Virus record (IMG/VR): IMGVR_UViG_3300032323_001119
Coordinates: 46,438-110,437 of that record
Length of the DNA stretch: 64,000 nucleotides
Direction: 5' to 3' (one strand)
From: a virus
The notes under the pieces were generated by a model. The model was not told the origin of the DNA, ran no database searches, and was given only the letters and a program-made list of their open reading frames with translations. Both the position numbers and the translations under genes were made by a program. Positions 2,788 through 63,999 of the stretch are shown piece after piece (position 1 is the first letter of the stretch; the number at the start of each line of letters is the position of its first letter).

Positions 2788-2802
2788 GAATGTTAGTTTA
2801 AA

Positions 2803-3429: not shown

Positions 3430-3455
3430 ATATTTATTATACCCTATATGCTTGT

Positions 3456-13214: not shown

Positions 13215-13221
13215 ATAAATA

Positions 13222-14028: not shown

Positions 14029-14029
14029 T

Positions 14030-15854: not shown

Positions 15855-18800
15855 TTTATTTCCTTTATATTTAAAGTTCCATCATCTAGTTTAGATAGAA
15901 CAACCTTGCATTTCATTCCTTCACGCATCTTAGCAAGAGTCATTTTATACATTGTAGGGAATGCAATTGCTCTAGTCAATTCTTTATTTCTATTTGAAAG
16001 GACTATGTGGCTCATTGTCTTTCCTGCTTTTGTTGTGTATGGCGTAAAGTTAACAACAATATATTCATCTTCTTCTAAATCATATTCTTTTCTATATAAA
16101 TAATCTACAAACATATCTTTTGATGATGGATCAATATCTGACACCTTAATATATCTAGCAATTCTATTGTCTCCAACTAGAATAAAATACATCTGACCAA
16201 CTTCAATTTGTGTTTGTTCATTATGGAAAAGTCCAATTGATCCAGTTTCATCTACAATCTCTACTCTTGCCCATCCAGAACCACGCTTAATTCCCTTGAC
16301 CATTCCGAACATAACAAAAGAGCCGAGATCGTCAAATTCTTCAATGGGTCTAGCTTGTGCTTTAACTCTAGGGGGTATTCCCTCTAAGTTAAATGTTGGG
16401 ATACCTAAATATTCATAGTAGTTATCCTTTTCATTGCCCTGTCTTGGGTTATCCTTAAATGCTGCTGCACCAATTGCATTTAGGGAGCTTACTGCCCTGC
16501 TGTTAATGCCGCTTCCTTTAGACGAAGCAACTGAAACAAACTGGTTGTAGTTGTCGTAAGGTCTATTATCAATAATTTTATTTGCAATGTTATCAGAAAT
16601 AAATTTAATTTCAGATAAACCAAATCTAATAGCATCTTTTTGCAATGAAAAATAAAGATCAGATTCATTAACATGTGGAAGAAGAACTTTTAGTCCTAGT
16701 CTTTTAGACTCAATAAGGTACTCTGTTCTCGCATCTTTATCATTTTCATTCTTAAGGATTGAAAACATGAACTCAAGTGGGTAGTAAAACTTAAGCCAAG
16801 CAGTATAATAGCTAAGCATAGAGTAAGCAACAGCATGGGAACGGTTAAAAGAATAGCCAGCATGCGCTTCAAAATCGTGCCATAGCGCCTCTGCTTTTTT
16901 CTTAGTAATGTGCTCTGAAGCCCCAGTAACAAACCTATCTTTGAACTGGTCAAACTCTTTTGCATCTTTTTTCTTTCCAATAATCTTGCGGACCTTATCA
17001 GCCTCTGCCCAAGTCATACCACCCAAGTGTACGCATGCCTGCATAACTTGCTCTTGATATATAATAACACCATATGTGTTCTCGGTAAATGGCTTCATAA
17101 TTGTATGCATGTAGTCTACTGCTTCATCCCCATGCTTACGCTTGATGTAGGCAGCTCCAACAGTATTCATGGCTCCTGGTCTTACCAAAGCGTTTGAAGC
17201 AACTAAATCTTCAAACTTGTCTGTACCCATTTTAATTAAAAGATTTGTGTAGGGTGTAGCTTCTGCCTGAAACACGCCCTTAGTGTAACCTTCGCTAAGC
17301 ATTTTATAAACTTCTGGATCATCTAATGATATATCTGACAGTACTATGTCCTTGCCAGTTCTGGACTTAATAGACTTAATTGTGTCTGATATAACAGAAA
17401 GAGTTTTTAGTCCCAAAGCATCGAGTTTAATAAGACCAATATCTGCAACAGTGTCCATGTCATATGCAACTACTGGTATTCTGCCAGATACTTTATCCTG
17501 TGCATCTTCTCTGGATTCAACTGGAGCAAACTTTCTAAGGTCATCCTTTGCAACTACAACTCCTGCTGCGTGTACACCAACTGATCTAATACGACCACGA
17601 AGTCTATCTGCAAGCCAAACTACTTCTGGATACTTGGCTCTAAATTCTTTTGTGTTAGGGGAAGTAATAAAATCTTCAAACGTATCAATTGATTTCATTG
17701 CACGGTTAACTTCTTGCAGTGGTACCATAAATATTCGTGCTGCATCACGAATTACACCTTTATCTTTAAAGTATGTATATGTAGAAATAGATGCAACATG
17801 CTTAAACTTTTTCTTAAGATATTCTTTTACTTCTTTACGACGTCTGTCTTCAAAGTCTGTATCAATATCTGGGAAGTCATTGCGCTCTGGATTAATAAAT
17901 CTAAAGAATAGAAGATCGTATTTAATGGGATCGACATCTGTAATTCCTAAAGAATAGCAAACAAGTGAGCCTGCTGCAGAACCACGACCAGGCCCAACAC
18001 GAATATCATTTGTCTTTGCCCAGTTAATCATATCAGCAATAACTAGAAAGTATGATGCAAAATTCTTTGAGGCAATAACGGAAAGTTCTTCTTCAACCCT
18101 ATCGATATAAACTTGATTGTCAGATAATCCTAGACTAGAAAGCCCTTGGTAAGACATTTCACGCAACTTATCGTCAGCATCTGTTTTTGGAACTGGCAGA
18201 AGATCGAGACCCTGATAGAAATCATATTCCTCAACTTTGTCTGAAATCTCCATTGTGTTTTCGTATATATCTGTACGAGAAATGCCAGAAGCATTAAAGT
18301 CAGCCTCAATTTCTGAACGTGATTGTATAAATAGATTATAGTCCTGAAAAGAAATTCTACGATCAGGATAAAGATAGTTAAATCTTTCCATCATGTCTTT
18401 AATGTTTCTAGACATTTCAAAGTCTGAATCTTTATCAATCTTTGGAGATGTAGACAGAATGAGAAGTGCTTCTTCTAAAACTCTGTCTTCTTCTTTAGCA
18501 AAGTGAGCATCTCCTGTAGCAACCGCTTTAATTTTTAGCTCGTCTGCTAATTCAAGAAGCTTATCGTTTATTTCTTTTGGGTTATGAGACTGTACTTCAA
18601 CATAAAAATCATCACCGAAAGTTTTTTGAAAATCCTTGAGAACCAATTTAGCTTCACTAAACTCGCTCCTTTCGATAGCCTTAGAAATAAGACCATTAAG
18701 GCAGCCAGAAAGGACAATAATACCCTCTGCATACTCTTTTAATACCTCTCTATCAATACGTGGCTTATGATAAAAACCTTCATTCCAGGCAAGCTCCTGA

Positions 18801-35800: not shown

Positions 35801-38800
35801 AGCTGCAATTCTAGCACTTGTTATTAATCTTGTAGATGCTGCCTTAAGTCCATTAGAGATAGAAGAAAATGCTGAATCTATTGCTACGTTAGCTCTTTGT
35901 AATGGAAGCTTTAACCCTGGCATGTAAGGCAAAGATCCTTGCAGTGTAGGAACATTTGTCACTACACCCTTTCCACCAACAAATGAAGTTGTCCCTACAG
36001 ATAGTGGCCCAGGCTTAGGTGGAGTAGTAGCAACTGGCATCGGTGCTCTTGATGCATTAAGGTTGTTTAAATAAAGCTGTCCTATTGCCCTCTGACTTGG
36101 ATCTCCTGATTTTAAAAGACGGTTAGCATGCTCTTTAGATGTAACTTGGCTAACATCAGAAACCTTTTCGCCATAACCTATTTTACTAGATTTGACTATA
36201 CCGCCTAGCATAAATCCTGGAATTATCTTGCCGCTCTGTTGTGGGCTAAATATTTCTGGACCCTTTTCTCCAACTAAATAGCTTTGTCCTGGAGATACTG
36301 GTCCTCCCATTTCTCTTTTACCATCAATGCCAAATATCTTTTTCTTAAGATCGTCTGTAATTGGTGTATTCTTTTTTGAATCCCAATTTAAGTATTTTTT
36401 CTTTAAAATATCTTTATCTATTGGAGAAAGTTGTTTTAAAACATTTCTGTCTGAAATCATATCGCTGGCAGCAGATCTAATTACTGCATCTAAAGCGTCT
36501 GGCTCAAGTCCATTCTTCAGTGTGCCGTCTGGCATCTTTACATAGCCATAAGGCTTTTCTTTTGCTAAAGCTGCTGCAAACTTATCGTATAAAAGCTTTT
36601 GAGTATTTTTTCTTAATCCAGTTCCAGCAAACAGCGTTTCTGCCATTTTAATTGATAAGGAGTTTACTCCCCATGGAGCAGATTCATACATGCTAGGTTT
36701 AGGGGCACCAGTTGGTCCAAAACCTGCACCTATTCTTCTCATGGCTATACCCTTTAAGACATTGCCAATTATTCCTCCACCATTAAATCCGTTTAGAGGA
36801 GTCTTAAAAGAATTGTCGCTTAGAGATATTGCATGACCTCTTTGACGTATTCTTAATTCAGCTTCGTCTTTTAACTTCTTTAATGCTGCTGGTGTAAGTG
36901 CCTTAGCTTTTGCAATTTCAACAGAAGAATGAATTCCATGGAACTCTTGCCAATTAACTGCTCTTCCATCTTCTAGCCTTTTAATCATTGCAGCATAAGC
37001 TTTAGCTTCATCTGGAGTTAAATCAAATCTTGATATGGTAGTCTTTAGTCTTGGTAGAACTGCATCAATTTCATCAATCATTGCTTTATGATATTGATCT
37101 GGAGTCATACCCTTTGGAATTGACAATGTGGACTCTGCAAAGAATCTCTTTGCTCCGCCCTTTACTCCGAGCAAGTTAATACGTGCCTGCTCTTTCATCG
37201 AAATCATTTCTTCTTCATAGGCTCTTTTACCAGAAGCCATCTTAAATACTCCAGCCGTTCCAACATCAGCCAATGTGCTTCCAGAAAGATTATCTCTACT
37301 TAAATCTCTATCTCCTCTTAAATTAGCTGCAACTAATTGCTTAAAGTAATCTTCTCGTGTAAATGATCCTGACTTATTTACAAATGCTTCGTCATAAGGA
37401 GACTCTAGTACAAGCAGCTTTCTCTTTCCAGTTGGATCTGTAGGGTCAAGCATGGTTCTAATTTCTTGTCTTGGAGCATTTAATCCATGTGCATCTCTTG
37501 CAATAATAGTTGCACGTTGCTCTGCTAGGGCTGCAGTTTCATCCATTACTGGTTTAACAAATACTTTAGTTCCATCTGGTTTTTCATAAACTCCACCAAT
37601 TCCAGAAACTGGGAAGCTTCTTCCAGATGAAGGAGAAATTAGTTTTCCAAAGTCTGTTGGAGGCATTGAAGCAAATCTGCTTGTACTCAAAGATTGGCTT
37701 ATTTCATCCATCTGCATTCTTGCGTTTCTTTGTTGCTCTACAGCTTTAAATGATCTAGGCATTCCAAGGAAAAGCTTGCCGTATCCGTACTTGCCTTTCT
37801 TTACCATACCGCCGATCATACCGCCAGCATTAGCAGCTCTAAGTCTTCTTCCTCCAACCATTGCAAACATCTGTCTCTCAGCTTTTCTAGGTTTTGCTGG
37901 AGTTCCAGACTCTCTAAATATTTTCATGTCAGCACCCAATGCTCTGACTAAGCTTTCTGGTATAGGACCTTTACCAGTCCATCTGCCAGTAGAAATCCAT
38001 TTTTCAATAACTGGTATATGTCTTTTAAAATCATCTACATCTTTAAATCCAAATGAAGTTGCAAGCCTGTGTGCTCTAGCTATAGCCTCATCTTTGGTAA
38101 GCGGAACTACGTCATCAATAATTTTTCTTTGCTCTAACCTGTTTCCAAATTTGTTAAAGTCATCATGGGCAGCTTCTCCGTAATAGCCTCGTGCAGCTAT
38201 AGGCCCAGACATTCTTTCTATATGTGCACGATCCCAGCCTGGATTTATGACAGCACCAGGGAACTTTGCTTTTAAAAGATTAAGTATTTGAAGCTTTGCT
38301 CTATTATTATTTTTTGCTGCACCTGCTTTTGCCAGCTTCCAATCTTTGTCTGTTTGTCCTGGCTTTCTTTCAAGCACAAGATCTGGGAAATTCTTTTGCA
38401 TGTAGGCTCTTTGTGCCTCAACATAGCTCATTCCTTTACCAGTTCTTAGATACTCTTCATGACTTGCCAAGGCAAGTCTTACGGCTTTTTCTGCTTCTGC
38501 AATTGCTCTTGAAGGAGTCATATTCATGTCTTTTGAATACTGCAGTATTGCAGTTGCATCATTTTGAATTAAGTTAGGAACAATATGATCTACATAAGGA
38601 GTTCTAACTCCAGTTAGATGATCTATGTACTGAGATGCTTTTTGAAGCTCAGACATCCCTCTTGCTGGACCGTCAAACATGTCTTGCATCTTGCCATAAT
38701 TTCTAATTCCTCTTGTTACCATGCCACCCAAAATTCCGCCATTATTTCTTAGTTGGACTCTTGATCCACTATTAGCTTTATCTAGCAAAGGCTTGTTGGC

Positions 38801-43830: not shown

Positions 43831-44615
43831 TAAAATACTCCTCCGAATTTTTCTGTTAGTGCCGCCTCGGCCTGTAGTCTAATTGTACCTGGACTAAAGG
43901 AATAACGCACCTTGGCAATAGATGAAGGAACTTTCATTGCTCTTTCAAACTTAGCCCCAAATAGGTTCTGGAATCCAGACATCTTTATTGAGTTGCTAAC
44001 CATTGGTCCACTAAAGTATCTACTATATGTTAAATCAAATTGATTTGTAGACGCCCTTCCTCCAGGGCTTTTTACTGTAACGGACTTGCCCTTTGGCATA
44101 AAAACTGTTTCTCCGTCAATTTCAAAAACTAATCTCTCAGCCGACTTTGGTCTAATTACAACTGGCATTCCCTTTTCCATGACATATGCTTTTCTTTCAA
44201 AAACATATCTGCTGGTCTGCTCTCTATTCTTAGATGGAACTGATGATTTAGAAAGCTTAAACTCATAATTAATTCTAAATGATAATCCAGCCCCGTCCAT
44301 TTGGTTTAACTTAAAAAGACGACTAGAAGTTTGCCCTGTCTTATTCCACTCATAAACATGGTGCAATGACTTTGGCTTTGTCCTAGCTTGAGAATCAATG
44401 AATAGGCCAAAATCTTTTTCTATCTGATTAAATATTGTTGTTTTAAATAGTCTTTGAAATGCTTTGTTAGACTCTAGTCTGGCTGCTACGTTTGCCTGAT
44501 AGTATAAGAATGCAGATATTTGAGCAACATTGCTATCTTTTAAAACGCCAGCCTGAGATGATCCTACCATCAATCTCTCTAGACCAGAAGAAGCTTGAAG
44601 TAGTGCTACTCCACT
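43830..44615 (-). CDS. Neck/tail-completion protein
   Basis: Position in the head-tail block; start uncertain (ORF track extends to 44624). Confidence 0.55.
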   Translation of the reverse strand, partial: SGVALLQASSGLERLMVGSSQAGVLKDSNVAQISAFLYYQANVAARLESNKAFQRLFKTTIFNQIEKDFGLFIDSQARTKPKSLHHVYEWNKTGQTSSRLFKLNQMDGAGLSFRINYEFKLSKSSVPSKNREQTSRYVFERKAYVMEKGMPVVIRPKSAERLVFEIDGETVFMPKGKSVTVKSPGGRASTNQFDLTYSRYFSGPMVSNSIKMSGFQNLFGAKFERAMKVPSSIAKVRYSFSPGTIRLQAEAALTEKFGGVF

Positions 44616-45042
44616 AGTCTCCAATTAATTGACTCTCTGATCTTTTAGCAATTGAGTTGTAAGCCATTAAATTACCGAATGGGTCTGTTATCGGTGTTGA
44701 GCTTGTTATTTCAAATACGGTTGGGGTATCATTTGGATAATTTAACTCTACCCATATTGGGTTATTAGAGCTGTCTCTAATGTTTGTTACTTTCTCTCTG
44801 TATGTTAATTTTGTTTCTGTTCTAATTTCAATAGTCTGATTATCTACATACTTAACAGAAATTGCTCTATTATCTCCACCCCTGCTTGTTGCAGAGTTGG
44901 TTATTATTCCTTTTGCAAAGCACGGTATGGTTCTTTGGTAAATCCAAGACTTTTTTATTGCGCCAGTATTTTGGTCTTGATAATCCTCTTGAGCATAAAC
45001 ATCTATTTTCATGCTAAGAATAGAGTCTACGATTCTGTTCAT
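44614..45042 (-). CDS. Head-tail stopper/closure protein
   Basis: DVY....QDQNTGAIKKSW...FEI...DPFG pattern; position. Confidence 0.65.
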   Translation of the reverse strand: MNRIVDSILSMKIDVYAQEDYQDQNTGAIKKSWIYQRTIPCFAKGIITNSATSRGGDNRAISVKYVDNQTIEIRTETKLTYREKVTNIRDSSNNPIWVELNYPNDTPTVFEITSSTPITDPFGNLMAYNSIAKRSESQLIGD

Positions 45043-52830: not shown

Positions 52831-53940
52831 TTAGATCTCTTCTAGTGCTTTAACTCTCGCTGTAAGCTCTTGTACCGCTTTAATTAATGGTGCTATAAAT
52901 TCTTCATACCTTAATGCTTGCTCAGAGTCTGGATCTTCTTTGTTTAAAAGCACCCATCCTCCAAAATCAACTTGAGCTTCATCAAGTACTTCTTTTACTT
53001 CTTGTGCTATTAGGCCATAGTGTGTTCTTGAGCCAGGAATAGAAATAGCATCTCCGTCAACTATTTCTTTACCGCCTTCTATAAACTTATAGCTTACTGG
53101 ATTTAAATTGTTTATAAAGTCAAGCCCAAGTGCTGACTGAGCAATTTCTGTTTTTAATCTTTGATCTGATGTGTTAATTGTTCCAGTATTGGAAAATATT
53201 GTTTTCCAAAATCTATTTGATGTTACTCCGTTTGGTGTGTCTATTGGCTGACCAAGATTGTAAAGATTGTTAAATGTTGGGTACCAACTAGAGTTTACGC
53301 CTAGCCCATTTGAAGTTGGTATGTTTAAAGATATTGTTGTAGGCACTGGATCTATTGTTGCACTTGAGCCAGGAATTCCTTGTGGGCCTTGAGGGCCCGT
53401 TAAGCCAGTTGCACCTCTAGGAATTGTAAATGCAAAAACTGCATTTGAAGCCGTACCAGTATTTGTCACTGAAGCATTAGTGCCTGCGGCACCTGTTGTT
53501 GTTGTTCCAACTGCTAAAGTTGTAGGACCCTGCGGACCAGCAGGACCCTGCGGACCAGCAGGCCCCTGTGGCAAGACAAGGTTGAGTGTCTGAGATGGGC
53601 TAGTGCCAGTAATAGTTGCAGATGCAGAACCACCTTGCTCAACGCTCCCAATCGACAAAACATTAGCTGGTCCAGGACCGCCAATTATTCCATCCACACC
53701 TCTTGGTAATGTTAAGTTTAATATTGCAGCTGATGCAGTTCCAACATTTACAACTGAAGCTGGAGTGCTTGCGCTAACGGTTGTTACAGAGCCTATTTCT
53801 AAGGTCCCTGCAGGCCCCTGTGGGCCTGGATGATCATCTAAGTATGCATCTACGTCGGCAGCTAGGTACCCAAGGTCCCTAGGGACATCTGGAGTATCTG
53901 TGTATTGAGGATATCTAAATCCTTTTCCTGTTTCACCCAT
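52831..53940 (-). CDS. Collagen-repeat fibre protein with a peptidase S74 chaperone domain
   Basis: GPQGPAG/GPAGPQGPAGPQGP tracts; SDQRLK, LNPVSY, HYGLIAQEV, LRYEEFIAPLIKAVQEL. Confidence 0.85.
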   Translation of the reverse strand: MGETGKGFRYPQYTDTPDVPRDLGYLAADVDAYLDDHPGPQGPAGTLEIGSVTTVSASTPASVVNVGTASAAILNLTLPRGVDGIIGGPGPANVLSIGSVEQGGSASATITGTSPSQTLNLVLPQGPAGPQGPAGPQGPTTLAVGTTTTGAAGTNASVTNTGTASNAVFAFTIPRGATGLTGPQGPQGIPGSSATIDPVPTTISLNIPTSNGLGVNSSWYPTFNNLYNLGQPIDTPNGVTSNRFWKTIFSNTGTINTSDQRLKTEIAQSALGLDFINNLNPVSYKFIEGGKEIVDGDAISIPGSRTHYGLIAQEVKEVLDEAQVDFGGWVLLNKEDPDSEQALRYEEFIAPLIKAVQELTARVKALEEI

Positions 53941-53960
53941 TTTTTTATTATACCACCTAA

Positions 53961-54611
53961 TTACTTAATATATACGTGTGCTGGGCTCATGTATCTTGTG
54001 CCAGATATAATTGGCTTTACTTCATGAATGAATGGCTCCTGAGAAGGGAACATTATCATACTGCCAGCTTTAGGCTTTATTGTTATGTTATGATTTGGAA
54101 AACTAATTTCTCCACCTTCATAGTCATCATTAATATATGCCACAAGCGAGAAAGCTAACTCTGTATGTCCATCTTGTCCATCAAAGTGCGGTCCCATTGA
54201 CTGCCCTTCATTCCAGGCCTTAATTTTAACATTATTTATGTCTAAATTATATTTGCTTTTGTCAAGCCCTTGACCATCGAGGTACCTATCTGTACACATT
54301 TCAAAAGCCATTAAGAAGCTATTTGCTATGTAAAGAGTTTTTTTGTCTACTATATCAGAGCCAGTAGATGTTTTTAGCTTAGAGCGATCTATATTTTTTG
54401 TTTTACCATAAACTAAGCTTGTATCATTGCTAGCTGTCCAATTTTCCCACTTAGATATTCTAGAGTAAGACAGTGGCTCTTCATCGATCTTGTCTATAAA
54501 TGATTTTAATTCTACTGGAAAACTTAAAGTGTTTTCCCAATACCAAATCTGTGGAGAAAGCACTTGAAGGTCAAACATTATAAATTGTTTAAACTCTACA
54601 TTTTTTTGCAT
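53961..54611 (-). CDS. 2OG-Fe(II) oxygenase, prolyl-hydroxylase-like
   Basis: PHFD, YINDDYEGGEI, FPS..HEVKPIISGTRY. Confidence 0.9.
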   Translation of the reverse strand: MQKNVEFKQFIMFDLQVLSPQIWYWENTLSFPVELKSFIDKIDEEPLSYSRISKWENWTASNDTSLVYGKTKNIDRSKLKTSTGSDIVDKKTLYIANSFLMAFEMCTDRYLDGQGLDKSKYNLDINNVKIKAWNEGQSMGPHFDGQDGHTELAFSLVAYINDDYEGGEISFPNHNITIKPKAGSMIMFPSQEPFIHEVKPIISGTRYMSPAHVYIK

Positions 54612-55360
54612 TACTCAACTTCCTTAGCTGGATATTTTTCTCCCTGTGGAGTTATTCTTAGTCCTTCTTCTCTGATAGCTTCCCATTCGGCAGCCTCTGT
54701 TTTTTGATATGCTCTTACTTCAGCAAGCTCAGCTGCCCATTCATCTCTTAATTCTTGTGGATAGTCTGACTCTTCTCTGTCATCCCAAAAAGATCCAAGA
54801 GTGTATCGAATTGCTTTCTTTACAGTTGTGACTTCATGAGTATTTTCAAATCCTCCAGCAAATGTTGCCATCCTTCCAGTTTTTGGAACAATAGTCAACC
54901 CATGCTTAAAGTTTAAAACCCCATCTTCAAAATCATCATTTAAATAAATAAATGTTGCATATCTACTTCTTGTAAATGCGCCAGACTTACCTTCGTTATC
55001 TGTATTGTCTGAATGCATATTTGCAAATGCACCTGGTGCCCATCTTTGAGAGTGCCAACTAATTTGTGACATCTGCTCAGGTTTTTTACCAGCCATATCG
55101 GCTGTTGCATCGATAACCCTCTGTCTTAAAACCTGAAAAAAATCTCCTGGTAATCCACAGGCGATTGTGTCTGGGTCATTTACTTCTGGCATTCCAGATG
55201 AATATGATTCGTAAAAAGAAATAGGCATCCATTTTAATTCTTCTTTTTGCATTTTTATGTCTAGGACTTTAATAACTGCAGCGCACTCTTCTGGAGTAAG
55301 GAAGTTGTCATAGACAACAATGTCTGATTTATGTCTTGTTATTTCCATATCTCTTTCCAT
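54611..55360 (-). CDS. 2OG-Fe(II) oxygenase, prolyl-hydroxylase-like
   Basis: VYDNFLTPEEC, MHSD, YLNDDFEDG, HEVTTV..RY. Confidence 0.9.
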   Translation of the reverse strand: MERDMEITRHKSDIVVYDNFLTPEECAAVIKVLDIKMQKEELKWMPISFYESYSSGMPEVNDPDTIACGLPGDFFQVLRQRVIDATADMAGKKPEQMSQISWHSQRWAPGAFANMHSDNTDNEGKSGAFTRSRYATFIYLNDDFEDGVLNFKHGLTIVPKTGRMATFAGGFENTHEVTTVKKAIRYTLGSFWDDREESDYPQELRDEWAAELAEVRAYQKTEAAEWEAIREEGLRITPQGEKYPAKEVE

Positions 55361-56175
55361 TATTTGTTTTCTCCCTTTATATTTGCAAGGTCGTCGTAGA
55401 GTGTCGGTACGCCATTTTCTAAGTACCTCATGTTTCTTGGGTCCTCATACTTTATTCTTTCTGCTTCCATTTGAGCCCACTTGTATGCACCAAATCTTTT
55501 TTGGCTTTCAAGCCACTCTTTTGTTCCATCAAATGGGATCATTACAAAATTTCTTACAAAGAACTTTTCATTTTTTTCAATGGTTTTTACGCCGTGGTAA
55601 TATGGTTCTACTGATGGGAATACTAAAATATCTCCAGAAACTGGCTTATGATTAATAAGCTTTCCATCAACATAAAACTCTATGTCTCCACCATCATAAT
55701 CATCATTTATATACATGGTGCATGTTATAAAAAATTTATCTCCAGGCATATCTTTTTGAGAAGTTATATGGTCTGTGTGATATTGCATTGTCATGTTGTT
55801 GTCTAATGTATTAATCTGAGGATTATATTTTGAATAAGAGCATCCACTAAATCTCCATCCATCTGGCAACTCTATTCCATGCCTATCAACATAGTCCATC
55901 AAAACTTTAGTGTATGCGTCTTCTACTTCATCTACAAAGTTTTTTTCTTTAATAAACATTTCTTCAGACTCTTGGCCCGCTACTATTTCTTGAGGATTCT
56001 TTTTTTGAGTATAGGTACCAAAATGTGCCCATGGATCCCAAGTTTTTAAAAAATGCTTGCCTTCTGAAGTTCTTTCAGATTCTTTCATGACCTCATACAT
56101 TTTTTGTGGGTCAGCAAGAACATCTCTGTAAATTTCTACCTTTGGATAAATCTCTATATAGTTTAGCTTGCTCAT
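55360..56175 (-). CDS. 2OG-Fe(II) oxygenase, prolyl-hydroxylase-like
   Basis: YHTD, YINDDYDGG, FPS..YYHGVK....KF. Confidence 0.9.
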   Translation of the reverse strand: MSKLNYIEIYPKVEIYRDVLADPQKMYEVMKESERTSEGKHFLKTWDPWAHFGTYTQKKNPQEIVAGQESEEMFIKEKNFVDEVEDAYTKVLMDYVDRHGIELPDGWRFSGCSYSKYNPQINTLDNNMTMQYHTDHITSQKDMPGDKFFITCTMYINDDYDGGDIEFYVDGKLINHKPVSGDILVFPSVEPYYHGVKTIEKNEKFFVRNFVMIPFDGTKEWLESQKRFGAYKWAQMEAERIKYEDPRNMRYLENGVPTLYDDLANIKGENK

Positions 56176-56846
56176 GGTTGTCTTTCTCCTGTGTGCTTAG
56201 ATATCGTCCAAAAGAATGGAGATGTAAATCGATTTCCAGATTTTACTGGTCTTACCCCGTGTGTATAATGCATGTCACCTGGGAAAAAATATGCCGCTCC
56301 AGCTACTGGCTGAAACTCAATTCCATGTTGAGGAAAATAAAGTTCTCCGCCCTCATAGTCATCGTTAAAATAAAAAAGTCCAGCTAAGTCGTACCAGGGA
56401 AAGTCGTTTGGCCTTCCCTTTTCTGGTCCAGAATGAAACTCTTTGTCTGCATGAGGTTCTTGTCTTGCTCCAATTGGCCACTTAACAATTGCTGGACCAG
56501 TTTCTTTTGCGTCAACATCAAAAAACTTATCTACCTCGATTTTTAGCCTGTCAATCATGCTATAAATAAGATCTAGTATTGTTGGGTCTGACTCTCTTAA
56601 AGAATTGATGGTGCAAACTCTGTCTTCCCATACCTTGTGGTCATACAAAACAAGTCCGTCTTCATCTACGTGTGTTTCTGTTATATCCCAAATTTTGTTC
56701 GATAATGCAAAATCCATTAGACGCTTTCTTTCTTCTAATGAAAGAAAATCTTTAATCTCAACTATGTTATCTATAGAATTGCCAAAAAAACCAGAAGGTG
56801 TAATAGATACTGGTCTGTCGTTATTCCATGCATTCTGTGTTTTCAT
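56172..56846 (-). CDS. 2OG-Fe(II) oxygenase, prolyl-hydroxylase-like
   Basis: PHAD, YFNDDYEGGELYF, HGVRPVKSGNRF. Confidence 0.9.
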   Translation of the reverse strand: MKTQNAWNNDRPVSITPSGFFGNSIDNIVEIKDFLSLEERKRLMDFALSNKIWDITETHVDEDGLVLYDHKVWEDRVCTINSLRESDPTILDLIYSMIDRLKIEVDKFFDVDAKETGPAIVKWPIGARQEPHADKEFHSGPEKGRPNDFPWYDLAGLFYFNDDYEGGELYFPQHGIEFQPVAGAAYFFPGDMHYTHGVRPVKSGNRFTSPFFWTISKHTGERQP

Positions 56847-56880
56847 TTATTCCACTTCCTCTATAATTAATTTTACCACA

Positions 56881-57591
56881 CTATTTTTTGTCTTTTATGG
56901 GATTTACCGATAGCCTTAGTGCCTTTACCTGATGCTTGCCTATAGAATTTTTTAAATGGTCAACTGCATCTCTATAAAAATTTGACCAGGTGCCTGATCT
57001 ATTTAAGTCGTATATTATCTCAGAATACTTGTCTGAATCAAACTGGGATTCTGGAAGATTTTGCATTGGCTCAAAGTTAATTTCTGACCCCTGAAGATCT
57101 TCTAAATTTATTGGAAGTATCGTTATAATTGGTGTTCCAGCCTTTATTGTTATAACTTCATTAGGCTTTGTAATCATCCATGCTACTGGCAACTCTCCTC
57201 TAAAAAAAGAAGTGCTAATTAAAGTAGTAAAAGGAACTGCACCATCAACAAACAAATTAGGAACTGGCATAGAAAGCATTGTTATGTTTTCTTCAGTTTT
57301 AAACATTAAACCAGTATTAAAACTAATCGTACCATTTGCTCTTCCTGAGTAAGCATACTTTTCTCCAGATAAAATCTTTACGTGATCTGGGCTAGCATCG
57401 CTTATTCCGTCCCATATAAAAGATATGTCTTCTGGGAATGAGATTGACCATCCAAGTTGATTAGTTAGTCCAACTGGGAAACACTTATACGCATGAGCCT
57501 CCCAAGTGTCGTCCATCCATTTTCTTTTTATAGATAAAGGCTCGACTATGCCATAGCCATCTCTTATCTCAAAAGCTTTTATATCATACAT
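56881..57591 (-). CDS. DUF6065-like protein
   Basis: KRKWMDDT...AYKCFPVGLTNQLGW...WDG...TGLMFKT, matching the family pattern as I recall it. Confidence 0.65.
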   Translation of the reverse strand: MYDIKAFEIRDGYGIVEPLSIKRKWMDDTWEAHAYKCFPVGLTNQLGWSISFPEDISFIWDGISDASPDHVKILSGEKYAYSGRANGTISFNTGLMFKTEENITMLSMPVPNLFVDGAVPFTTLISTSFFRGELPVAWMITKPNEVITIKAGTPIITILPINLEDLQGSEINFEPMQNLPESQFDSDKYSEIIYDLNRSGTWSNFYRDAVDHLKNSIGKHQVKALRLSVNPIKDKK

Positions 57592-58297
57592 ATGAATTTT
57601 TACCAGACTTGGCGTCTTCCTCTACCCATTTAGATCTCATTTCCATAAACTCTTGTCTATGGGCATGATCATTATAGTCTAGCATCGTAACAATTGAAAA
57701 TTTCATTCCAGATTTTACTGGCATTGCTCTATGAGAAAAAAGATATGTGGATGGAAATATGTATAGGTCACCAGCTTTTGGCTTTATGTCTAGGCCAATT
57801 TTTGGAAAATATAAGTTGCCGCCTTCATAATCATCGTTTACATAAGCAACAAGTGAGACGGTGGCGCTATATGAAAATCCATGATCTGCATGTTCTTGGA
57901 AGTGTTGCCCTTCTCCATATCGAATGCAATTCATAACTTCCCAGTAATTCATCTTAACATTAAATTTTGCACAATAATCTTGTACTGCTAAATCTTGAGA
58001 ATATTTAAGGTCTTTCCATAGTTCGGAAACAAGCTTTTCTGTTTCTGTTCTTGGATTAGGAATATCTCCTACCTTTATATCTTCGCAATCTCTATAGTCT
58101 GGTCTTTTTTCACTATAACCTACAAAGCCAAATGTCCATAGAAATCTAGAATCATTGTCTTTTATAGCAGACTCCCCTATTTGATTGAGTCTTTCGATTA
58201 CATTTAGTTCTTTTTTAATTACGTCTCTGTAAACCCATACCCCTGGAAAAAGCTCTTCTTTTGAAGAAAATTTAAATTTATCTATAATGTTATTCAT
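57584..58297 (-). CDS. 2OG-Fe(II) oxygenase, prolyl-4-hydroxylase-like
   Basis: RYGEGQHFQEHAD, YVNDDYEGG, FPS..HRAMPVKSGMKF. Confidence 0.9.
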   Translation of the reverse strand: MNNIIDKFKFSSKEELFPGVWVYRDVIKKELNVIERLNQIGESAIKDNDSRFLWTFGFVGYSEKRPDYRDCEDIKVGDIPNPRTETEKLVSELWKDLKYSQDLAVQDYCAKFNVKMNYWEVMNCIRYGEGQHFQEHADHGFSYSATVSLVAYVNDDYEGGNLYFPKIGLDIKPKAGDLYIFPSTYLFSHRAMPVKSGMKFSIVTMLDYNDHAHRQEFMEMRSKWVEEDAKSGKNSYV

Positions 58298-58304
58298 GAT
58301 ATTT

Positions 58305-58334
58305 ATTGTACCATTTACAAATTCACATTGTCAA
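58305..58334 (-). promoter_or_regulatory. Leaderless promoter for the oxygenase cluster
   Basis: TTGACA-18-TACAAT (TGG extension)-7 nt-ATG. Confidence 0.7.
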
Positions 58335-58339
58335 TAAGA

Positions 58340-58366
58340 AAGAGGGGGCAGATGCTGCCCCCTCTT
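58340..58366 (-). terminator. Intrinsic terminator after the FN3-Hint gene
   Basis: AAGAGGGGGCAG-ATG-CTGCCCCCTCTT followed by a T-rich tract on the minus strand. Confidence 0.75.
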
Positions 58367-58382
58367 ATGTACTAATTTAAAA

Positions 58383-59705
58383 TTAGTTTCTTATTATAAA
58401 CGACTCTCCTAGTACCAAAACATCTGGGTCTGTGTAGAATCGGTATACTGTAGATGGTTCGTTTACTTCATCAACTGAATTTACCTCTAAATACTGAGAT
58501 TCTTCATCTGATGCGTAGACAATCTTGTCTCCAGCCTTTATGTCTGCTGGTGTCATAAACTTATAAACACCATCTCTTAAGACTATAAGTTCTTCTTGAA
58601 GAGAGAATCTTGCAGAGCTGTCTCCATTAAACATAAATGTTTTATTCTGAAGTGTAGATTGGATAGAGAATATCTCTGCCTCAATACTTTTAGCCTTTCC
58701 AAGATTTGAAGATGTCCAAGTCTTTGGATCATAGTCACCCTCGTTTGGAAGTCCCTCAAATATTAAGCTTGACAAAATATCTCCGAGCTTTATATCCTTG
58801 GCCTTTTTGTATCCACTTGTAGTTAGAATTAAAGTATCTTCGTTGATACATCCAAATCTAGGTGGTGAAAAGAAGCCAGGTGGGAAGAACGGTGGTGCGA
58901 AGAAGAACGGTGGGAAGAATGGTGGGGCGAAGAAGTTAGGTGGGAAGAATGGTGGGAAGAATGGTGGTGCGAAGAAGCTAGGTGGGAAGAATGGTGGGGC
59001 GAAGAAGTTAGGTGGGAAGAATGGTGGTGCGAAGAATCCTGGTGGGAAGAACGGTGGGAAGAATGGTGGGAAGAACGGTGGGAAGAACGGTGGAAAGAAT
59101 GGTGGGAAGAATGGTGCCTGAGTAGTAACTTCATTAGTGTTATTAGAAGCTGCAGACCGTCCGTTTGCATTATCTGCGTAAACGTTGTAATACTGTGATG
59201 TATTAGCTGAATCGCTAATTGTAACAGAATTACCTGTTGTGTTTCCACTTGTTCCATCGTTACCAGCTACATAGTAGTTGGTAATGGCTTTTCCTCCATT
59301 TGCTGGAGTTTGCCACTGAATTGTATTTTGATTTACTCCAGCAGTTGCCGTAGCACTTATTGGTGCTTGAGGTACTGTTGTGGCTGTAAAAGCAGCTGAT
59401 GTTGCAGCTGGAGAATTTCCTACGGCATTTTTTGCAACTACTGTTACTGTATATGAAGTATTTGACAAAAGACCAGTGATAGTTGCACTAGTAGTAGATA
59501 CATTTGTTGTAGTTGTTGATGGTGTAGTTGTTATATCATAGCTTGTAGCAGCTGGTGAGTCTGCTGGCAATGTCCAGGAAACTGAGGCTGCTCCATTGTT
59601 ATATGGACGATTAGTGCCTACATCAGATGCGGAAAGTCCTGTTACTTCTTTTGGCTCTAAAAAGTTATCTTGAGCTGATGCTCTTCTACCTATATTTTTT
59701 GACAT
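58383..59705 (-). CDS. FN3-FN3-(FFPP)n repeat-Hint domain protein
   Basis: Two FN3 repeats (VSWTLP..Y..TGL..YTVTVVAKNAVG; WQTPANGGKAITNYYV); 85-aa Pro/Phe repeat; Hint block A G-CINEDTLILT..GYKKAKDIKLGD at Cys286; ends VYRF...IIRN-stop. Confidence 0.8.
   Translation of the reverse strand: MSKNIGRRASAQDNFLEPKEVTGLSASDVGTNRPYNNGAASVSWTLPADSPAATSYDITTTPSTTTTNVSTTSATITGLLSNTSYTVTVVAKNAVGNSPAATSAAFTATTVPQAPISATATAGVNQNTIQWQTPANGGKAITNYYVAGNDGTSGNTTGNSVTISDSANTSQYYNVYADNANGRSAASNNTNEVTTQAPFFPPFFPPFFPPFFPPFFPPFFPPGFFAPPFFPPNFFAPPFFPPSFFAPPFFPPFFPPNFFAPPFFPPFFFAPPFFPPGFFSPPRFGCINEDTLILTTSGYKKAKDIKLGDILSSLIFEGLPNEGDYDPKTWTSSNLGKAKSIEAEIFSIQSTLQNKTFMFNGDSSARFSLQEELIVLRDGVYKFMTPADIKAGDKIVYASDEESQYLEVNSVDEVNEPSTVYRFYTDPDVLVLGESFIIRN
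58860..59114. repeat. Coding tandem repeat of 12-nt (FFPP) and 18-nt (xFFAPP) units
   Basis: ggtgggaagaaY units on the plus strand. Confidence 0.95.
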
Positions 59706-59723: not shown

Positions 59724-62399
59724 TTATGCCTTTAGATCTCCAGCTAACAACCAAGTTGTTGCTGCAACCTTAGTGGCTGTTACTGATGAAGCTGTTGTTC
59801 TTAATGTTGACCCAGGAGTTGAAAGAATTGTTATTCCAGATCCTGTTATATTTGCACCAGTACCTGATGACTGGTAGAAGCTGATTGAAGAACCGATTGC
59901 ATATTTAGCGTTTCCTGTTGCTTCAAAGCTTATGTTTACTGCACCAGCTAGCGGTACCAAGGAATCTCTTACTTGAGCATCTGTTCCTAGTGCATCAAGT
60001 GTTGTATTTGATGACCGTTCTGTTGCTATGGTTGTAAGTGATGGAACACCAGCCCGTGTCTGAGTTTTATCAGAGAAAACAATTCCTGCTGCAACCAAGT
60101 TATTAAGCTCAAGGTTATCAAGAGATCCTTGTGCAAAGTTGACTGTGGTTGTTGGTTCTGATGTTACACCTTTAAAGAGCTTCCATTCATCATCAGATAC
60201 GTCTCTTACAAGACCTGAGTGCTTTGCTGCTCCATCATTGTAAGCAACAACAAGACCTAGGTCTACTGTGTTGCCTGGATTTTGATGAGACAGCTGAAGT
60301 ATATTATCTTCAATTGTAATAGATGTTGCAGAAGCATTAAATGTTGTACCATTTACAGTAAGGTCTCCCTGAACTGTTAAAGCTCCATCTAATGTTGTAG
60401 ATTGAGAATCTGTTTTAACCAACTTGGATGTATCTGCGATTCCATGTACATCTGTTGTGTCTGCAGAGTGTGTAGAAATTGCAGATGCAGATGCTGTTGC
60501 TGCTGCTGAAATTGCTGCAGTCTGAGCTGCGTCAGACTTTGTAGTTGCATCTGTTGCTGCTGCATTAATTGCTTCGGTTTTTGCTGTAGCAACATTTGCT
60601 GTAGTTGCAAGCAATGATGTATCTGCAATTCCGTGAACATTTGTTGTATCTAAAGCATGATCATTTAGTGCTGTTTCAGCTGCTGCTATTTGTGACTGTA
60701 CAGAAGATGTTATTCCGTCAAGGTATCCTATTTCTGTTGCAGAAAGATTTCCAATTGATGTTGTGCTTGGCAAAACTACTGTTCCTGTAAATGTTGGACT
60801 ATCTTTGCTAGCTAAAAGATCTAGGTCTGATTCAAGATTAGCAATTTTTGACTGGCTAATATTCGCATCAGACTTTACATTAGCGTCTGAAATTGAATTT
60901 GATGCAAGCTTGTCTGCGTTGACAGAGCCATTTGCAATTTTATTTGAATTAACTGAACCATTTTCAATCTTGTCAGATGTTACTGAGTTATTTGATAGGT
61001 GTCCTGCAAGGATAGACCCATCTTCAATTTTACTTGAAGTAACTGAGCCATTTGCAATTTTATCAGATGTTATTGCAGAAGAAACTAATTTTTCAGATGT
61101 TATAGAGTTGTCAGATATTTTGCTGGTGGTAATTGAGCTATCTGCAATTTTACCCTCTGTAACAGCAGCTGAAGCAATTTTATTTTCTGTAACAGCTGCA
61201 TTGTTAATTTTATTTTCTGTAATATTTGAATCTAAAATTTTTGCAGTTGTAATTGCATCATCTGCAATTTTTTCTGTTGTTACTGCTTCATCAATTATTT
61301 TATCAGTAGTTACTGCATCGTCTGCAATTTTCGCTGCTGATATTGAGTTGTTTGCTAAATGATTTACAAGAACAGCTTCGTCTGCAATATTTTGAGAAAT
61401 AATAGATGAATTTGGAAGAGTTACTGCCCCAGTTAATGTTGGGTTGTTTATTTCTGCTTCGCTTGCTTCAAATCTTCCAACTTGAAGTGCATCTAGTGAA
61501 CCTTGGGCAAAGTTAACTGTAGTGGTAGGCTCATCAATAACATCTTTAAACAGCTTCCACTTATCTTCTGATGCGTCACGCACAAATCCAGTGTGATTAA
61601 ATACTCCAGTGTTATGTCCAGCAACAAATCCTAGGTCAAGCATTCCTGACTGATTTGTATTTGCCATCAATAACAAAGTATCTTCAATTGCAAAGTTTTC
61701 TGTGTTAATTGTTGTCATTGTACCGTTTACCGCAAGGTTTCCAGTAACAGTAACGTTATTTGCACTTAAGTTTCCAGTTGTTGCAATGTCTGCTGTAAAT
61801 GATCCTAATGGAAGCTCTGACTGCAAAATCTTAGAATTAGAGTCTAGTGATGCTACTCCGCCTGCTGCCCCTCTTTCTCCTACTTCAAGATAACCAGACA
61901 AAGAGTTATTTACTGAGTTTATTGCTGTGTCTGTATAATCTTCTGCAGCCAATAAAGCGTCATTTGCTTTTGTAGAAGCATCTGTTGCAGCTGCAGCGAT
62001 AGCAGCTGATTGTGCTGCTCCAGCTTTTGCGGTTGCATCTATGGCAGCTGCAGCGATAGCAGCTGATTGTGCTGCAGTAGAAGAAGATATCGCAAATTCT
62101 TTTGTTGAAACCACATCTGTGTCAACAGTTATAGTGATTGTGTTTGCGCCATCGTTATAAGTCTTTGTTAAACCCGCTCCTAATGAAAGGGCGTTATTAA
62201 TAGCGTCTTGGGAAATTTCACCAATTGCTACATCTGAATTGTTGGCATATGGGAGGGCTGTCCAAGTAGCGGTTCCGTTACCAAATTTAAATAAATTAGT
62301 GTTTGTTTCAACACCCATTTCACCTGCTGCCAAAATTGGATTTGCTGTAGTCCATTCTGAAGCTAAACCTCTGCGTACTTGAATTCTTACTGTTGACAT
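59724..62399 (-). CDS. Fibre protein with an Mtd-N/hyaluronidase-type N-terminus and decapeptide repeats
   Basis: RIQVRRG.ASEW..ANPILAAGEMGVET..FKFGNG; about 16 (V/I)TxxKIxxxS/A repeats; duplicated RDxSxDxWKLFK module. Confidence 0.8.
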   Translation of the reverse strand: MSTVRIQVRRGLASEWTTANPILAAGEMGVETNTNLFKFGNGTATWTALPYANNSDVAIGEISQDAINNALSLGAGLTKTYNDGANTITITVDTDVVSTKEFAISSSTAAQSAAIAAAAIDATAKAGAAQSAAIAAAATDASTKANDALLAAEDYTDTAINSVNNSLSGYLEVGERGAAGGVASLDSNSKILQSELPLGSFTADIATTGNLSANNVTVTGNLAVNGTMTTINTENFAIEDTLLLMANTNQSGMLDLGFVAGHNTGVFNHTGFVRDASEDKWKLFKDVIDEPTTTVNFAQGSLDALQVGRFEASEAEINNPTLTGAVTLPNSSIISQNIADEAVLVNHLANNSISAAKIADDAVTTDKIIDEAVTTEKIADDAITTAKILDSNITENKINNAAVTENKIASAAVTEGKIADSSITTSKISDNSITSEKLVSSAITSDKIANGSVTSSKIEDGSILAGHLSNNSVTSDKIENGSVNSNKIANGSVNADKLASNSISDANVKSDANISQSKIANLESDLDLLASKDSPTFTGTVVLPSTTSIGNLSATEIGYLDGITSSVQSQIAAAETALNDHALDTTNVHGIADTSLLATTANVATAKTEAINAAATDATTKSDAAQTAAISAAATASASAISTHSADTTDVHGIADTSKLVKTDSQSTTLDGALTVQGDLTVNGTTFNASATSITIEDNILQLSHQNPGNTVDLGLVVAYNDGAAKHSGLVRDVSDDEWKLFKGVTSEPTTTVNFAQGSLDNLELNNLVAAGIVFSDKTQTRAGVPSLTTIATERSSNTTLDALGTDAQVRDSLVPLAGAVNISFEATGNAKYAIGSSISFYQSSGTGANITGSGITILSTPGSTLRTTASSVTATKVAATTWLLAGDLKA

Positions 62400-62460
62400 T
62401 ATGCCACCCCTTTAATTTGATATATTGAAATTATAGCATTAAACTGATTATTGATAAGCG

Positions 62461-62892: not shown

Positions 62893-63999
62893 TTATTTAA
62901 GAAGTGTTCCAGTTACTTTAACTGTTGAGCCATTTGTTGGGTTAACTGTTATTGCAACATTTGAACCTATAACAGCTGCAGAGATTGTGCCTCTTGAGCC
63001 ATTTGTTCCAACGATTGCATATTCTGTAATTGCAATCTGGTCTGCTGAATCTAGTGTTAATAAGATTTCTGATATTTCATTGTGTGTTCCGTTATCAACC
63101 TTGACAAGGAACTTACCTGAGCGGTAATCCGCCTTTGGCCATGAATATACAGTTGATGCAGATCCTACTGCTATAGTAGATGTTGCTGCAATCTGCTTAG
63201 CCTCATCATTTACGTTAATTTCTGTAAATGCTGTTGTTGCATCTAGAACATTGTTAAGTGCTGCTTGAGCTGTTGCTTCTGCATCTGATTGTGCATCTGC
63301 TGCTGCTGAGTCTACATCACCTATTGTTGCAATCTTTGTATCTGAATCTGGTGTGCCAAGGTAAGCGTTGCTTGAGTTTGGAGCAATAACTACGTTATTG
63401 AATAGTGATCCAAGAACTAAATCTCCTGCTTTAGCTACGACATTAAGGGCGTGGCTTACTGGCTGAACTCCGATTTCTGCTTCATCAGCAAGTGTGTTGG
63501 ACTCTGTAAACTTAAGACCATCAACAATTGTCTTGCTTGAGAGGTTTTGGATATCTGTAGTTCCAACTACATCTCCGTATACACCGTGTGCAGATGAGTC
63601 ATTGATGTGGTCTGTTAGGTCATCTGCTACTGCTGCTGCTGCACCTGCTACATCATATGATGCTGCTGTTGCAAGATTGGCTGCGAAGTTAAAGTCTGAT
63701 ATGTCTTGTGAATTAAGACCAGTTACAGAGATTATGTCATCTGTAATATCAATGTTTGCGCCTGGTGTTAATGTATTTTGCTTTCCTGCTGCAATACCCT
63801 GAAGATCAGAGATAATATCTGGATTATCCTGAAGTGCTTCAGCCAACTCATTAAGAGTGTCAAGAACTGCTGGTGCACCATTAACAAGTGCTGCTACTGC
63901 ATCATCTGCGTGATCCTTTGCTCTTTCTTCTGCAAGACCAATCTCTGTACTTGTCTTGTATGATGACCAAGTTGTTGTTGATGTTGTTTGAGAATCTTG
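62893..63999 (-). CDS. Tail-fibre-like structural protein, 5' end outside window
   Basis: Frame is open to the window edge: LVNGAPAVLDTLNELAEALQDNP motif; C-terminal YRSGKFLVK..EILL..TEYA domain. Confidence 0.75.
   Translation of the reverse strand, partial: QDSQTTSTTTWSSYKTSTEIGLAEERAKDHADDAVAALVNGAPAVLDTLNELAEALQDNPDIISDLQGIAAGKQNTLTPGANIDITDDIISVTGLNSQDISDFNFAANLATAASYDVAGAAAAVADDLTDHINDSSAHGVYGDVVGTTDIQNLSSKTIVDGLKFTESNTLADEAEIGVQPVSHALNVVAKAGDLVLGSLFNNVVIAPNSSNAYLGTPDSDTKIATIGDVDSAAADAQSDAEATAQAALNNVLDATTAFTEINVNDEAKQIAATSTIAVGSASTVYSWPKADYRSGKFLVKVDNGTHNEISEILLTLDSADQIAITEYAIVGTNGSRGTISAAVIGSNVAITVNPTNGSTVKVTGTLLK

Follow-up and report, generated by a model that had tools for sequence, protein, structure and literature searches.

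A Phe/Pro-repeat protein that recurs with prolyl 4-hydroxylase-like oxygenases and DUF6065 in the fibre region of freshwater actinophages

Aquatic phages, and cyanomyoviruses above all, carry many genes for 2-oxoglutarate (2OG)-Fe(II) oxygenases, which are listed as 'auxiliary metabolic genes' and whose role is open (PMC3037559). Our study concerns a stretch of viral DNA of 64,000 nucleotides (hereafter the window), comprising positions 46,438 to 110,437, that is, the final 64 kb, of the 110,437-bp IMG/VR virus record IMGVR_UViG_3300032323_001119. Between its positions 52831 and 59705, the window encodes a protein with a Phe/Pro repeat and a C-terminal Hint domain, followed by a block of five prolyl 4-hydroxylase (P4H)-like oxygenases (ox1 to ox5) with a DUF6065 protein among them, and then by a collagen-like fibre; all of these genes are encoded on the minus strand. 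The nearest homologues of the oxygenases in isolated phages (~30% identity) are found in T4-like cyanophages, which also carry several copies per genome. The function of these enzymes in cyanophages and cyanomyoviruses is unknown (PMC3037559), and in contrast to the present locus neither a repeat protein nor DUF6065 has been reported with them. In the literature searched, we found no description of a repeat/oxygenase/DUF6065 system and no mention of DUF6065.

The closest viral parallel is Paramecium bursaria chlorella virus 1 (PBCV-1), which like the window phage combines a small P4H-type 2OG oxygenase (A085R, 5c5t) with proline-rich repeat proteins. The PBCV-1 enzyme hydroxylates Pro-containing peptides in vitro, according to a passage in PMC7019647 that cites Eriksson 1999. 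Our locus differs in belonging to a bacteriophage, in having 5–8 clustered paralogues and DUF6065 rather than a single enzyme, and in having a Phe/Pro polymer with adjacent enzyme genes and a self-cleaving-type cap rather than PAPK-type repeats. The best solved sequence relative of ox1 is the P4H of Bacillus anthracis (3itq, 5hv0), which has been discussed together with the collagen-like protein BclA. It is a bacterial-type P4H, monomeric or dimeric, that acts on collagen-like peptides; unlike it, ox1 has a putative DUF6065 partner and would have another type of substrate, and the match is weak and confined to the core (residues 112–185).

The C-terminal domain of the repeat protein has the fold of Hedgehog Hint and bacterial intein-like (BIL) domains, with a Cys nucleophile at a junction after Gly and no C-extein. 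In the absence of a C-extein, a C-terminal Hint domain is limited to N-terminal cleavage or transfer, the case known from Hedgehog. Unlike these relatives, the window domain has no sterol-recognition region and is carried by a phage fibre-region repeat protein, on which it is freely swapped with Peptidase_S74 or lost. Peptidase_S74, known from phage fibres and endosialidases, is a C-terminal intramolecular chaperone that aids assembly and then cuts itself off. Such a domain follows the repeat in one related locus (L197) and also ends the collagen-like fibre of the window, although the Hint fold on the window repeat protein is unrelated to it in structure and chemistry.

A further parallel is offered by the Skp1 pathway, with the P4H PhyA and the transferase Gnt1 (which we take to be a GT60 member in CAZy), and by the hydroxyproline-rich glycoproteins of plants and algae, as P4H-type enzymes are paired with a PF11397/GT60 glycosyltransferase in seven loci related to ours. 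Gnt1 is an N-acetylglucosamine (GlcNAc) transferase acting on the hydroxyproline of Skp1 (PMC3515798), and PF11397 is annotated as GT60 (PMC6418280). The difference is that GT60 is absent from the window itself, that the target would be a polymer and not a single Pro, and that the host is prokaryotic. The features of the locus are as follows, in the direction of transcription.

59724..62399, minus strand: fibre protein of 891 aa that begins with an Mtd_N domain (Pfam Mtd_N E 9.9e-13; PHROG tail-fibre families)
58383..59705, minus strand: repeat protein precursor, 440 aa, built as FN3, Ig-like region, polymer, RFG|C and Hint
59121..59594, minus strand: FN3 (residues 38–101; Pfam fn3 E 7.7e-13) and a second beta-rich region (~residues 105–195)
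58860..59114, minus strand: Pro/Phe polymer, residues 198–282, the proposed hydroxylation substrate
58386..58850, minus strand: Hint domain (bacterial-intein-like/Hedgehog-type), residues 286–440, from Cys286 to ...IIRN
58340..58366, minus strand: intrinsic-terminator-like hairpin (12 bp stem, 8 GC, T-run), ending the fibre/repeat-protein transcription unit
58305..58334, minus strand: promoter-like TTGACA-18-TGGTACAAT with extended -10 (11/12 positions match, TG present)
57584..58297, minus strand: ox1, P4H-like 2OG-Fe(II) oxygenase (PF13640 E 1.1e-13; B. anthracis P4H 3itq/5hv0 E 5e-6)
56881..57591, minus strand: DUF6065 protein with a dUTPase-like beta fold (PF19541 E 3.7e-30; score 105.6 bits, cut-off 26.6)
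56172..56846, minus strand: ox2, P4H-like 2OG-Fe(II) oxygenase (PF13640 E 2.5e-7; HxD..H and R)
55360..56175, minus strand: ox3, P4H-like 2OG-Fe(II) oxygenase (PF13640 E 9.2e-8; HxD..H and K)
54611..55360, minus strand: ox4, P4H-like 2OG-Fe(II) oxygenase (PF13640 E 5.2e-8; HxD..H and R)
53961..54611, minus strand: ox5, P4H-like 2OG-Fe(II) oxygenase (PF13640 E 7.7e-12; PBCV-1 P4H 5c5t E 1.2e-3)
52831..53940, minus strand: collagen-like fibre with short Gly-Pro-X tracts and a C-terminal Peptidase_S74 domain (PF13884 E 8.5e-16)

A preliminary description of this DNA had proposed that the repeat is the substrate of the oxygenases, and had suggested looking for the co-occurrence of repeat, oxygenase and DUF6065 genes across phage and metagenome contigs. 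Loci were collected by similarity to the repeat protein (69 loci), by DUF6065 (the best 80 of 204 matches) and by a DNA pattern for the repeat (at least 120 stretches, giving 116 new loci and four already in the set), and the linkage was found throughout the lineage and in an unrelated phage, G001. The gene order of the lineage is fibre, repeat protein, ox1, DUF6065, ox2–ox5, (collagen fibre, LamG protein), g112 and portal. An (xFFxPP)n gene stands directly before ox1–DUF6065 in every related locus with upstream sequence, and each of the 83 distinct complete blocks has 4–8 oxygenases after its repeat gene, none being without them. A separate set of loci from the pattern scan encodes small repeat proteins of 122–150 aa, which consist of a 75-aa N-terminal domain and 6–11 xFFxPP units ending in ...PPAFK; here a tail-fibre gene comes before, and an ox1-like gene (35–38% identical to window ox1), DUF6065 and further oxygenases come after.

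The contig G001 (204.9 kb, 97% complete) gave no match to the window portal, capsid protein or terminase at E 0.01, in a search that does find the portal in two members of the lineage; a search of G001 with a T4-type portal family was also made, in which the control itself matched nowhere. G001 also encodes three WhiB proteins and shows weak similarity to a tail sheath. Its module runs oxygenase, fibre, repeat protein (135 aa, with a different N-terminus and no Hint), an oxygenase on the other strand, ox1-like gene and DUF6065, and within the 18-kb module region examined the collagen and LamG genes were unmatched. Judged by its gene content, G001 is a myovirus-like actinophage and an independent genomic background for the trio of repeat protein, ox1-type oxygenase and DUF6065. 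With no detectable similarity in portal, capsid protein or terminase, the genomic evidence argues that the trio moves together among phages that are unrelated but share a host phylum, shedding FN3 and Hint but keeping the polymer.

What is held constant in the repeat protein is the polymer. The preliminary counts were reproduced exactly: the 440-aa open reading frame (ORF) contains an 85-aa tract with 37 Pro and 37 Phe, made of 12 FFPP and 6 xFF[A/S]PP units. The tract is the sole Pro-rich polymer in the window phage genome. The repeat is found in all 184 distinct homologues examined and is the only part to persist through every domain swap, the N-terminus varying between two FN3 domains, a Cys-rich protein of up to 1142 aa and the 75-aa domain; the Cys-rich carriers form a second cassette upstream in some relatives. 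In the window, the description of the N-terminus as FN3-FN3 stood for the first domain, whereas the second is an Ig-like region for which Pfam gives nothing; the corresponding domain of the homologue in L074 has a weak, sub-threshold PKD_6 match. An Mtd_N-type fibre gene lies directly upstream of the repeat-protein gene here and across relatives. A collagen-like triple helix was considered for the repeat and rejected, as Gly is rare and the 6-mer units, with G, A or S at each third position, are thrown out of register by the 12 FFPP 4-mers.

Comparison of the repeat protein with phages by tblastn returned one weak Hint match, in phage NCTB, and nothing else. A pattern scan of 185,579 prokaryote genomes gave 34 stretches, nearly all of them off-frame low-complexity noise, and yielded no cellular FFxPP protein; the only true in-frame repeat proteins were in L154 and L160, both of this phage lineage. 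A further homologue of the repeat protein (P0021) is named 'uncultured Caudovirales phage' at NCBI. The suggestion that the system is similar to pathways for ribosomally synthesized and post-translationally modified peptides did not hold, as the precursor is a 440-aa multidomain fibre-region protein and not a leader-core peptide, with carriers of up to 1142 aa elsewhere, and Pfam and PHROG annotation showed no recognition or leader-peptidase family of such pathways among the neighbours.

The C-terminus of the repeat protein, on the other hand, is exchangeable. Pfam gave no match to the last 155 residues of the window protein, but the Hint assignment made earlier was borne out by two other approaches: a profile of 23 homologous domains (alignment A1) matched the bacterial intein-like domain 2lwy in the PDB at E 1.5e-6, along with mini-inteins, and an AlphaFold2 (AF2) model (pLDDT 89, pTM 0.80) had inteins, BIL2, the BIL domain 2lwy and Hedgehog 1at0/6tyy as its top Foldseek matches in the PDB (E 7e-6 to 5e-5). 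The sole Cys of the repeat protein, Cys286, directly follows RFG, at the proposed RFG|C junction, and this first Cys of the domain is invariant among the 23 diverse domains (22–69% identity). The catalytic environment of the window domain is less canonical. The block-B TxxH His is absent (SLQEELIV, with Glu in the His column) and is present in only one subtype (SLVQHVF), others having Pro or Thr, so that most are without it; the C-terminus reads ...IIRN and then stops, with RN and not HN, whereas some subtypes end in HNK.. plus a few extra residues. Intein splicing was excluded for the window Hint because there is no C-extein, the domain running straight into the stop codon.

A tally was made of 184 distinct repeat proteins with complete C-termini. 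A Hint domain starting with Cys ends 100 of the 184, and about 7 of the 184 have a Hint-like domain starting with Ser (K|SVGVNTL..). A Peptidase_S74 domain is found in 1/184, a short tail (RFGFRY, TFGSRFIRAY or AFK) in 61/184, and small Cys-rich tails in 13 proteins of the mid-length class, with several more counted under short tails. At least five subtypes can be told apart among the Cys1 Hint domains, with only 22–35% identity to the window domain and with the junctions RFG|C, KGK|C, FGG|C, GPP|C and xF|C. In L197 the S74 domain (E 6.5e-10) takes the place of Hint, starting exactly after ...PPGFK, and the cap-less proteins end in ...PPAFK or ...FGSRFIRAY, near the usual cap junction. The Hint fold, the invariant Cys1, the Ser1 variant, the S74 swap and the cap-less forms favour reading the Hint domain as a self-removing cap, on comparison of sequences: because Hint can be replaced by S74 or dropped and the protein still ends alike, the cap would be removed and not needed for ligation. 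Of the earlier proposal that Hint 'releases or ligates' the product, release is thus favoured and ligation disfavoured. Tails of the small Cys-rich kind, such as ...CNKGTCGCCLPC or those with 6-Cys motifs, stand in place of a self-cleaving domain in L239/L301:11124-11531(-), L234, L068, L040, L204 and L214, and look like disulfide-knotted tips.

The enzyme block was likewise as first described. All five oxygenases score above the PF13640 cut-off (32–52 bits against 27) with the HxD...H triad and the following R/K intact; H136, D138 and H189 are invariant in an alignment of seven paralogues, and R or K stands at His+10 in ox1–ox5. The ox1 type is the paralogue kept in both phage lineages (conserved residues in alignment A4). 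The nearest solved sequence relatives are the B. anthracis P4H for ox1 and the PBCV-1 P4H for ox5, with PiuC also among the matches in the comparisons of these two. Weak similarity to characterized P4Hs (3itq, 5c5t) tentatively predicts peptidyl-proline as the substrate of ox1–ox5, and the additional suggestion of Phe hydroxylation was unsupported. The collagen-like Gly-Pro-X fibre, with its short tracts and S74 domain, does follow the oxygenases. Its role as a necessary second substrate is not supported, since L139, L140, L142 and L144 have no match to the collagen gene, or to the LamG gene, and keep the repeat gene and the block; it is possibly an additional substrate, dispensable for retention of the block.

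The DUF6065 assignment of the preliminary description was confirmed. The AF2 model of the window protein (pLDDT 89) aligned by VIA-align with 13 dUTPase or dUTPase-fold chains at Z 8.3–10.4 over 104–121 residues, compared to Z <=4.2 for unrelated folds, and the structural matches included the non-enzymatic dUTPase-fold proteins pp71 and ORF10 of herpesviruses. The dUTPase motifs RSS, GxIDxxYxGE, RIAQ and RGxxGFGS were absent from all 24 aligned DUF6065 sequences (0/4 patterns in any), and an active dUTPase was rejected on the absence of these four strings. A profile search returned 1465 cluster representatives, in some of which DUF6065 is fused to a PF13640 oxygenase (P0297, P0327, P0339 and P0380) or to a sulfotransferase of the Stf0/Sulfotransfer_1 type (P0334 and P0388). 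The family occurs in 30 of 301 sampled alphaproteobacterial genomes, a tally that includes one unpublished genome (G050), and three of four long open frames examined from Alphaproteobacteria are fusions with Cupin_8/JmjC (L302, L309 and L312). Comparison by phmmer of the ±1.5-kb flanks of 15 alphaproteobacterial DUF6065 genes found no phage-like oxygenase neighbours, only Cupin_8 fusions, and tblastn of DUF6065 against 50,697 phage records gave no match. From the fusions to PF13640 and Cupin_8/JmjC and the 8-nt overlap of the ox1 gene with the DUF6065 start, we infer that DUF6065 is a dedicated partner of 2OG protein hydroxylases. Two other fusions were seen, with an integrase Arm DNA-binding domain (P0323) and with TPR repeats (P0356).

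Several relatives carry accessory modification genes that the window does not have. In 22 related loci, sulfotransferase-like and Asp_Arg_Hydrox genes lie between the repeat(-Hint) gene and ox1, for example at L010:4112-5366, in L059 and L063 and in 19 others (Sulfotransfer_1/2 near threshold; Asp_Arg_Hydrox E 5e-11). The seven PF11397 'GlcNAc' glycosyltransferase genes (E 2e-41) lie directly after the second, large Cys-rich repeat-Hint protein, at L038:4392-5576 and in L021, L039, L045, L047, L067 and L069. As the products of the sulfotransferase, aspartyl hydroxylase (AspH)-like and GT60 genes all act on proteins or their glycans, the accessory genes would fit a tailoring pathway for a protein. 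A specific tie of the AspH-like genes to Asp or Asn at the variable repeat position was rejected, the repeats in L010, L059 and L063 being without either residue. In many other loci, an 80-aa ORF matches part of the PF11397 glycosyltransferase.

The preliminary description had also placed a terminator and a separate promoter between the Hint gene and the oxygenases; both are present and are conserved in relatives, where the stem sequences of the hairpin differ and pairing is kept by compensatory changes. The window -10 element ends 7 nt before the ox1 ATG, and relatives keep a spacing of 6–7 nt, a closeness that suggests a leaderless ox1 mRNA. Leaderless mRNAs are common in Actinobacteria. Several genes are preceded on the coding strand by an extended -10 box, TGNTAYAAT (window 58305-58313, 53947-53955, 62430-62438 and other minus-strand sites), and the one before the collagen fibre gene also ends 7 nt from its ATG; the count in the whole window is not above chance (13 observed compared to 8.6 expected).

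We propose that the locus is a fibre-accessory module of freshwater actinophages. The functional part of the protein encoded after the Mtd_N fibre would be an extended, very hydrophobic (F-F-x-P-P)n polymer, which in the window would hang on FN3/Ig-like domains and presumably be incorporated into the virion. Hint would serve as a disposable cap or folding aid, most likely removing itself by an N-to-S acyl shift at Gly285|Cys286 and then hydrolysis, to leave a mature C-terminus of ...PPRFG. The block, under its own promoter, would supply five P4H-type 2OG/Fe(II) oxygenases and a DUF6065 partner of dUTPase fold, which would hydroxylate prolines of the PP dipeptides in the polymer. The paralogues may each take different positions or sequence contexts, and in some relatives the product may be further glycosylated (by GT60) or sulfated.

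On the conserved and recurring linkage, we regard the polymer as the best candidate substrate of the oxygenases, and would put the chances of this being right or wrong about level. The part of the original proposal that stood is the association, through the linkage, the P4H-like enzymes and GT60 in relatives; hydroxylation of particular residues is a prediction from the enzyme family. A number of observations weigh against the proposal. Linkage within the lineage is by itself weak evidence of a functional link, as this is one viral lineage with general synteny, and because the fibre gene is a neighbour as constant as the repeat, co-occurrence alone cannot pick the target. PBCV-1 virions are without detected hydroxyproline (PMC7019647). 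Where relatives have a second repeat-Hint cassette, an oxygenase comes after it in just 7/36 cases, and the number of oxygenases in a block is uncorrelated with the proline count of its repeat (Spearman rho 0.10, p 0.37, n 83), the corresponding values for repeat length being rho 0.21, p 0.06, n 83. With its block-B His replaced by Glu and an RN end in place of HN, the window Hint may cleave slowly or not at all. The strong conserved terminator and the separate promoter make the repeat gene and the oxygenase block distinct transcription units. Finally, seven further P4H-like ORFs lie outside the block, making twelve in the 110-kb genome: window 11981-12916 and 13222-14061 (-), and, in coordinates of the whole genome (G000), 12320-13742(+), 15700-16401(-), 36976-37518(-) and 44333-45040(-). 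As such paralogues lie elsewhere, including the replication region, P4H-like enzymes are not confined to a repeat substrate. Two of the outside ORFs flank a gene in the replication/recombination region.

The scattered paralogues, the separate promoter, the constancy of the fibre gene in both lineages and the scarcity of oxygenases beside the second cassette would also be expected if the enzymes modify other proteins. These could be the collagen-like S74 fibre, which begins only 20 nt beyond ox5, further proteins of the fibres or virion, or proteins of the host, for instance translation factors; EF-Tu and ribosomal proteins are known targets of P4H-like enzymes in bacteria. Adjacency to the repeat would then reflect a hypervariable fibre/moron region that collects and co-transfers such genes. 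We consider this unlikely given that the collagen and LamG genes are unmatched in several relatives that keep the block and in the G001 module region, and that the repeat is the only Pro-rich polymer of the genome and survives every domain swap. It is less likely still that the target of the oxygenases and DUF6065 (joined by a sulfotransferase in some relatives) is a small molecule, a sugar or a nucleotide, such as a host envelope glycan or a metabolite. The dUTPase-like fold is of a nucleotide-binding type, DUF6065 is fused to Stf0-type/Sulfotransfer_1 domains in some proteins, and PF13640 also covers PiuC-type enzymes, for which we know of no substrate. For the cyanophage homologues, consumption of 2OG or a part in DNA repair has been discussed (PMC3037559). 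However, none of the 24 DUF6065 sequences has the dUTPase motifs, non-enzymatic proteins are among its structural matches, its P4H-type and JmjC/Cupin_8 fusion partners are mainly protein hydroxylases, and the genomic context consists of fibre genes, to which relatives add GT60 and AspH-like genes. Least probable of all, in our view, is that Hint works as a ligase-like device, passing the FN3-repeat moiety through a Gly285-Cys286 thioester to a virion protein or a nucleophile on the host surface. The restriction of such domains to cleavage or transfer, the invariant Cys1 and the fact that Pfam recognizes no virion-attachment domain in the stand-alone FN3-repeat protein would all suit a ligase, but the cap is elsewhere absent (61/184) or exchanged for Cys-rich tails or for S74, a domain that forms no thioester, so that ligation is not a general requirement, and the block-B His is missing in most Hint subtypes.

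The system supplies a concrete, cloneable substrate candidate encoded beside the phage oxygenases and a first functional context for DUF6065 as a partner of protein hydroxylases. The comparison of C-termini also suggests that a phage fibre-region protein can carry either Hint or S74 as its removable cap. If the polymer is indeed the target, prokaryotic viruses would possess a hydroxyproline chemistry akin to that of plant and algal cell-wall proteins, and oxygenase genes now considered 'metabolic' would be reclassified as virion-tailoring genes. More tentatively, and in our view less probably than not, the locus may represent a new type of virion appendage, in which a hydroxylated polymer of Phe and Pro, carrying sugar or sulfate in some lineages, is made by a dedicated P4H/DUF6065 machine of several enzymes and matured by interchangeable self-cleaving caps, with DUF6065 as a new and widespread substrate-handling subunit of 2OG protein hydroxylases. 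A bolder variant would have an uncleaved Hint hold a latent thioester at the fibre tip and form a covalent bond with the host surface. In lakes the lineage is abundant, with 1194 DUF6065 protein clusters at E <= 0.001, the best 120 of which are all >=60% identical to the window protein.

The window phage itself is a freshwater actinophage without a detectable tail sheath. This follows from its portal, which is 57% identical to those of the Streptomyces phages Circinus and BillNye (Stanwilliamsviridae), from the WhiB encoded in its genome, from relatives which we take to come from lake metagenomes on the basis of their IMG sample numbers, and from the lack of any sheath detected in the phage. 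The region upstream of the portal in Circinus, the one such neighbourhood inspected, has no oxygenase block, and megablast of the region against GenBank phages gave no match. L154 (JBBALJ010000003.1, 78 kb) and L160 (CAIJZG010000064.1), which contain fibre, FN3-repeat-Hint, ox1 and DUF6065 genes and belong to the same lineage, are binned into Bacteroidia/Bacteroidetes metagenome-assembled genomes; this is probably mis-binning, as these phages have WhiB and portals like those of Streptomyces phages.

The window also encodes a portal, protease, capsid protein, head-tail adaptor, minor tail proteins, terminase and DnaE-like polymerase, together with a 2953-aa open frame for which tape measure is the label given in the preliminary description. 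Outside the window, at G000 2003-3580 (-), a second Mtd_N-type fibre is followed by a gene for a 525-aa Pro-rich and Cys-rich (16 Cys) protein; this is where relatives have their second repeat-Hint cassette, yet the protein is without repeat, Hint or a following oxygenase. The record is classed by IMG/VR as having direct terminal repeats, although its first and last 50–2000 bases, when compared, were not identical. A fibre ORF of the g317 type crosses the record end, the open frame at window 62893-63999 resuming in genome 1-686.

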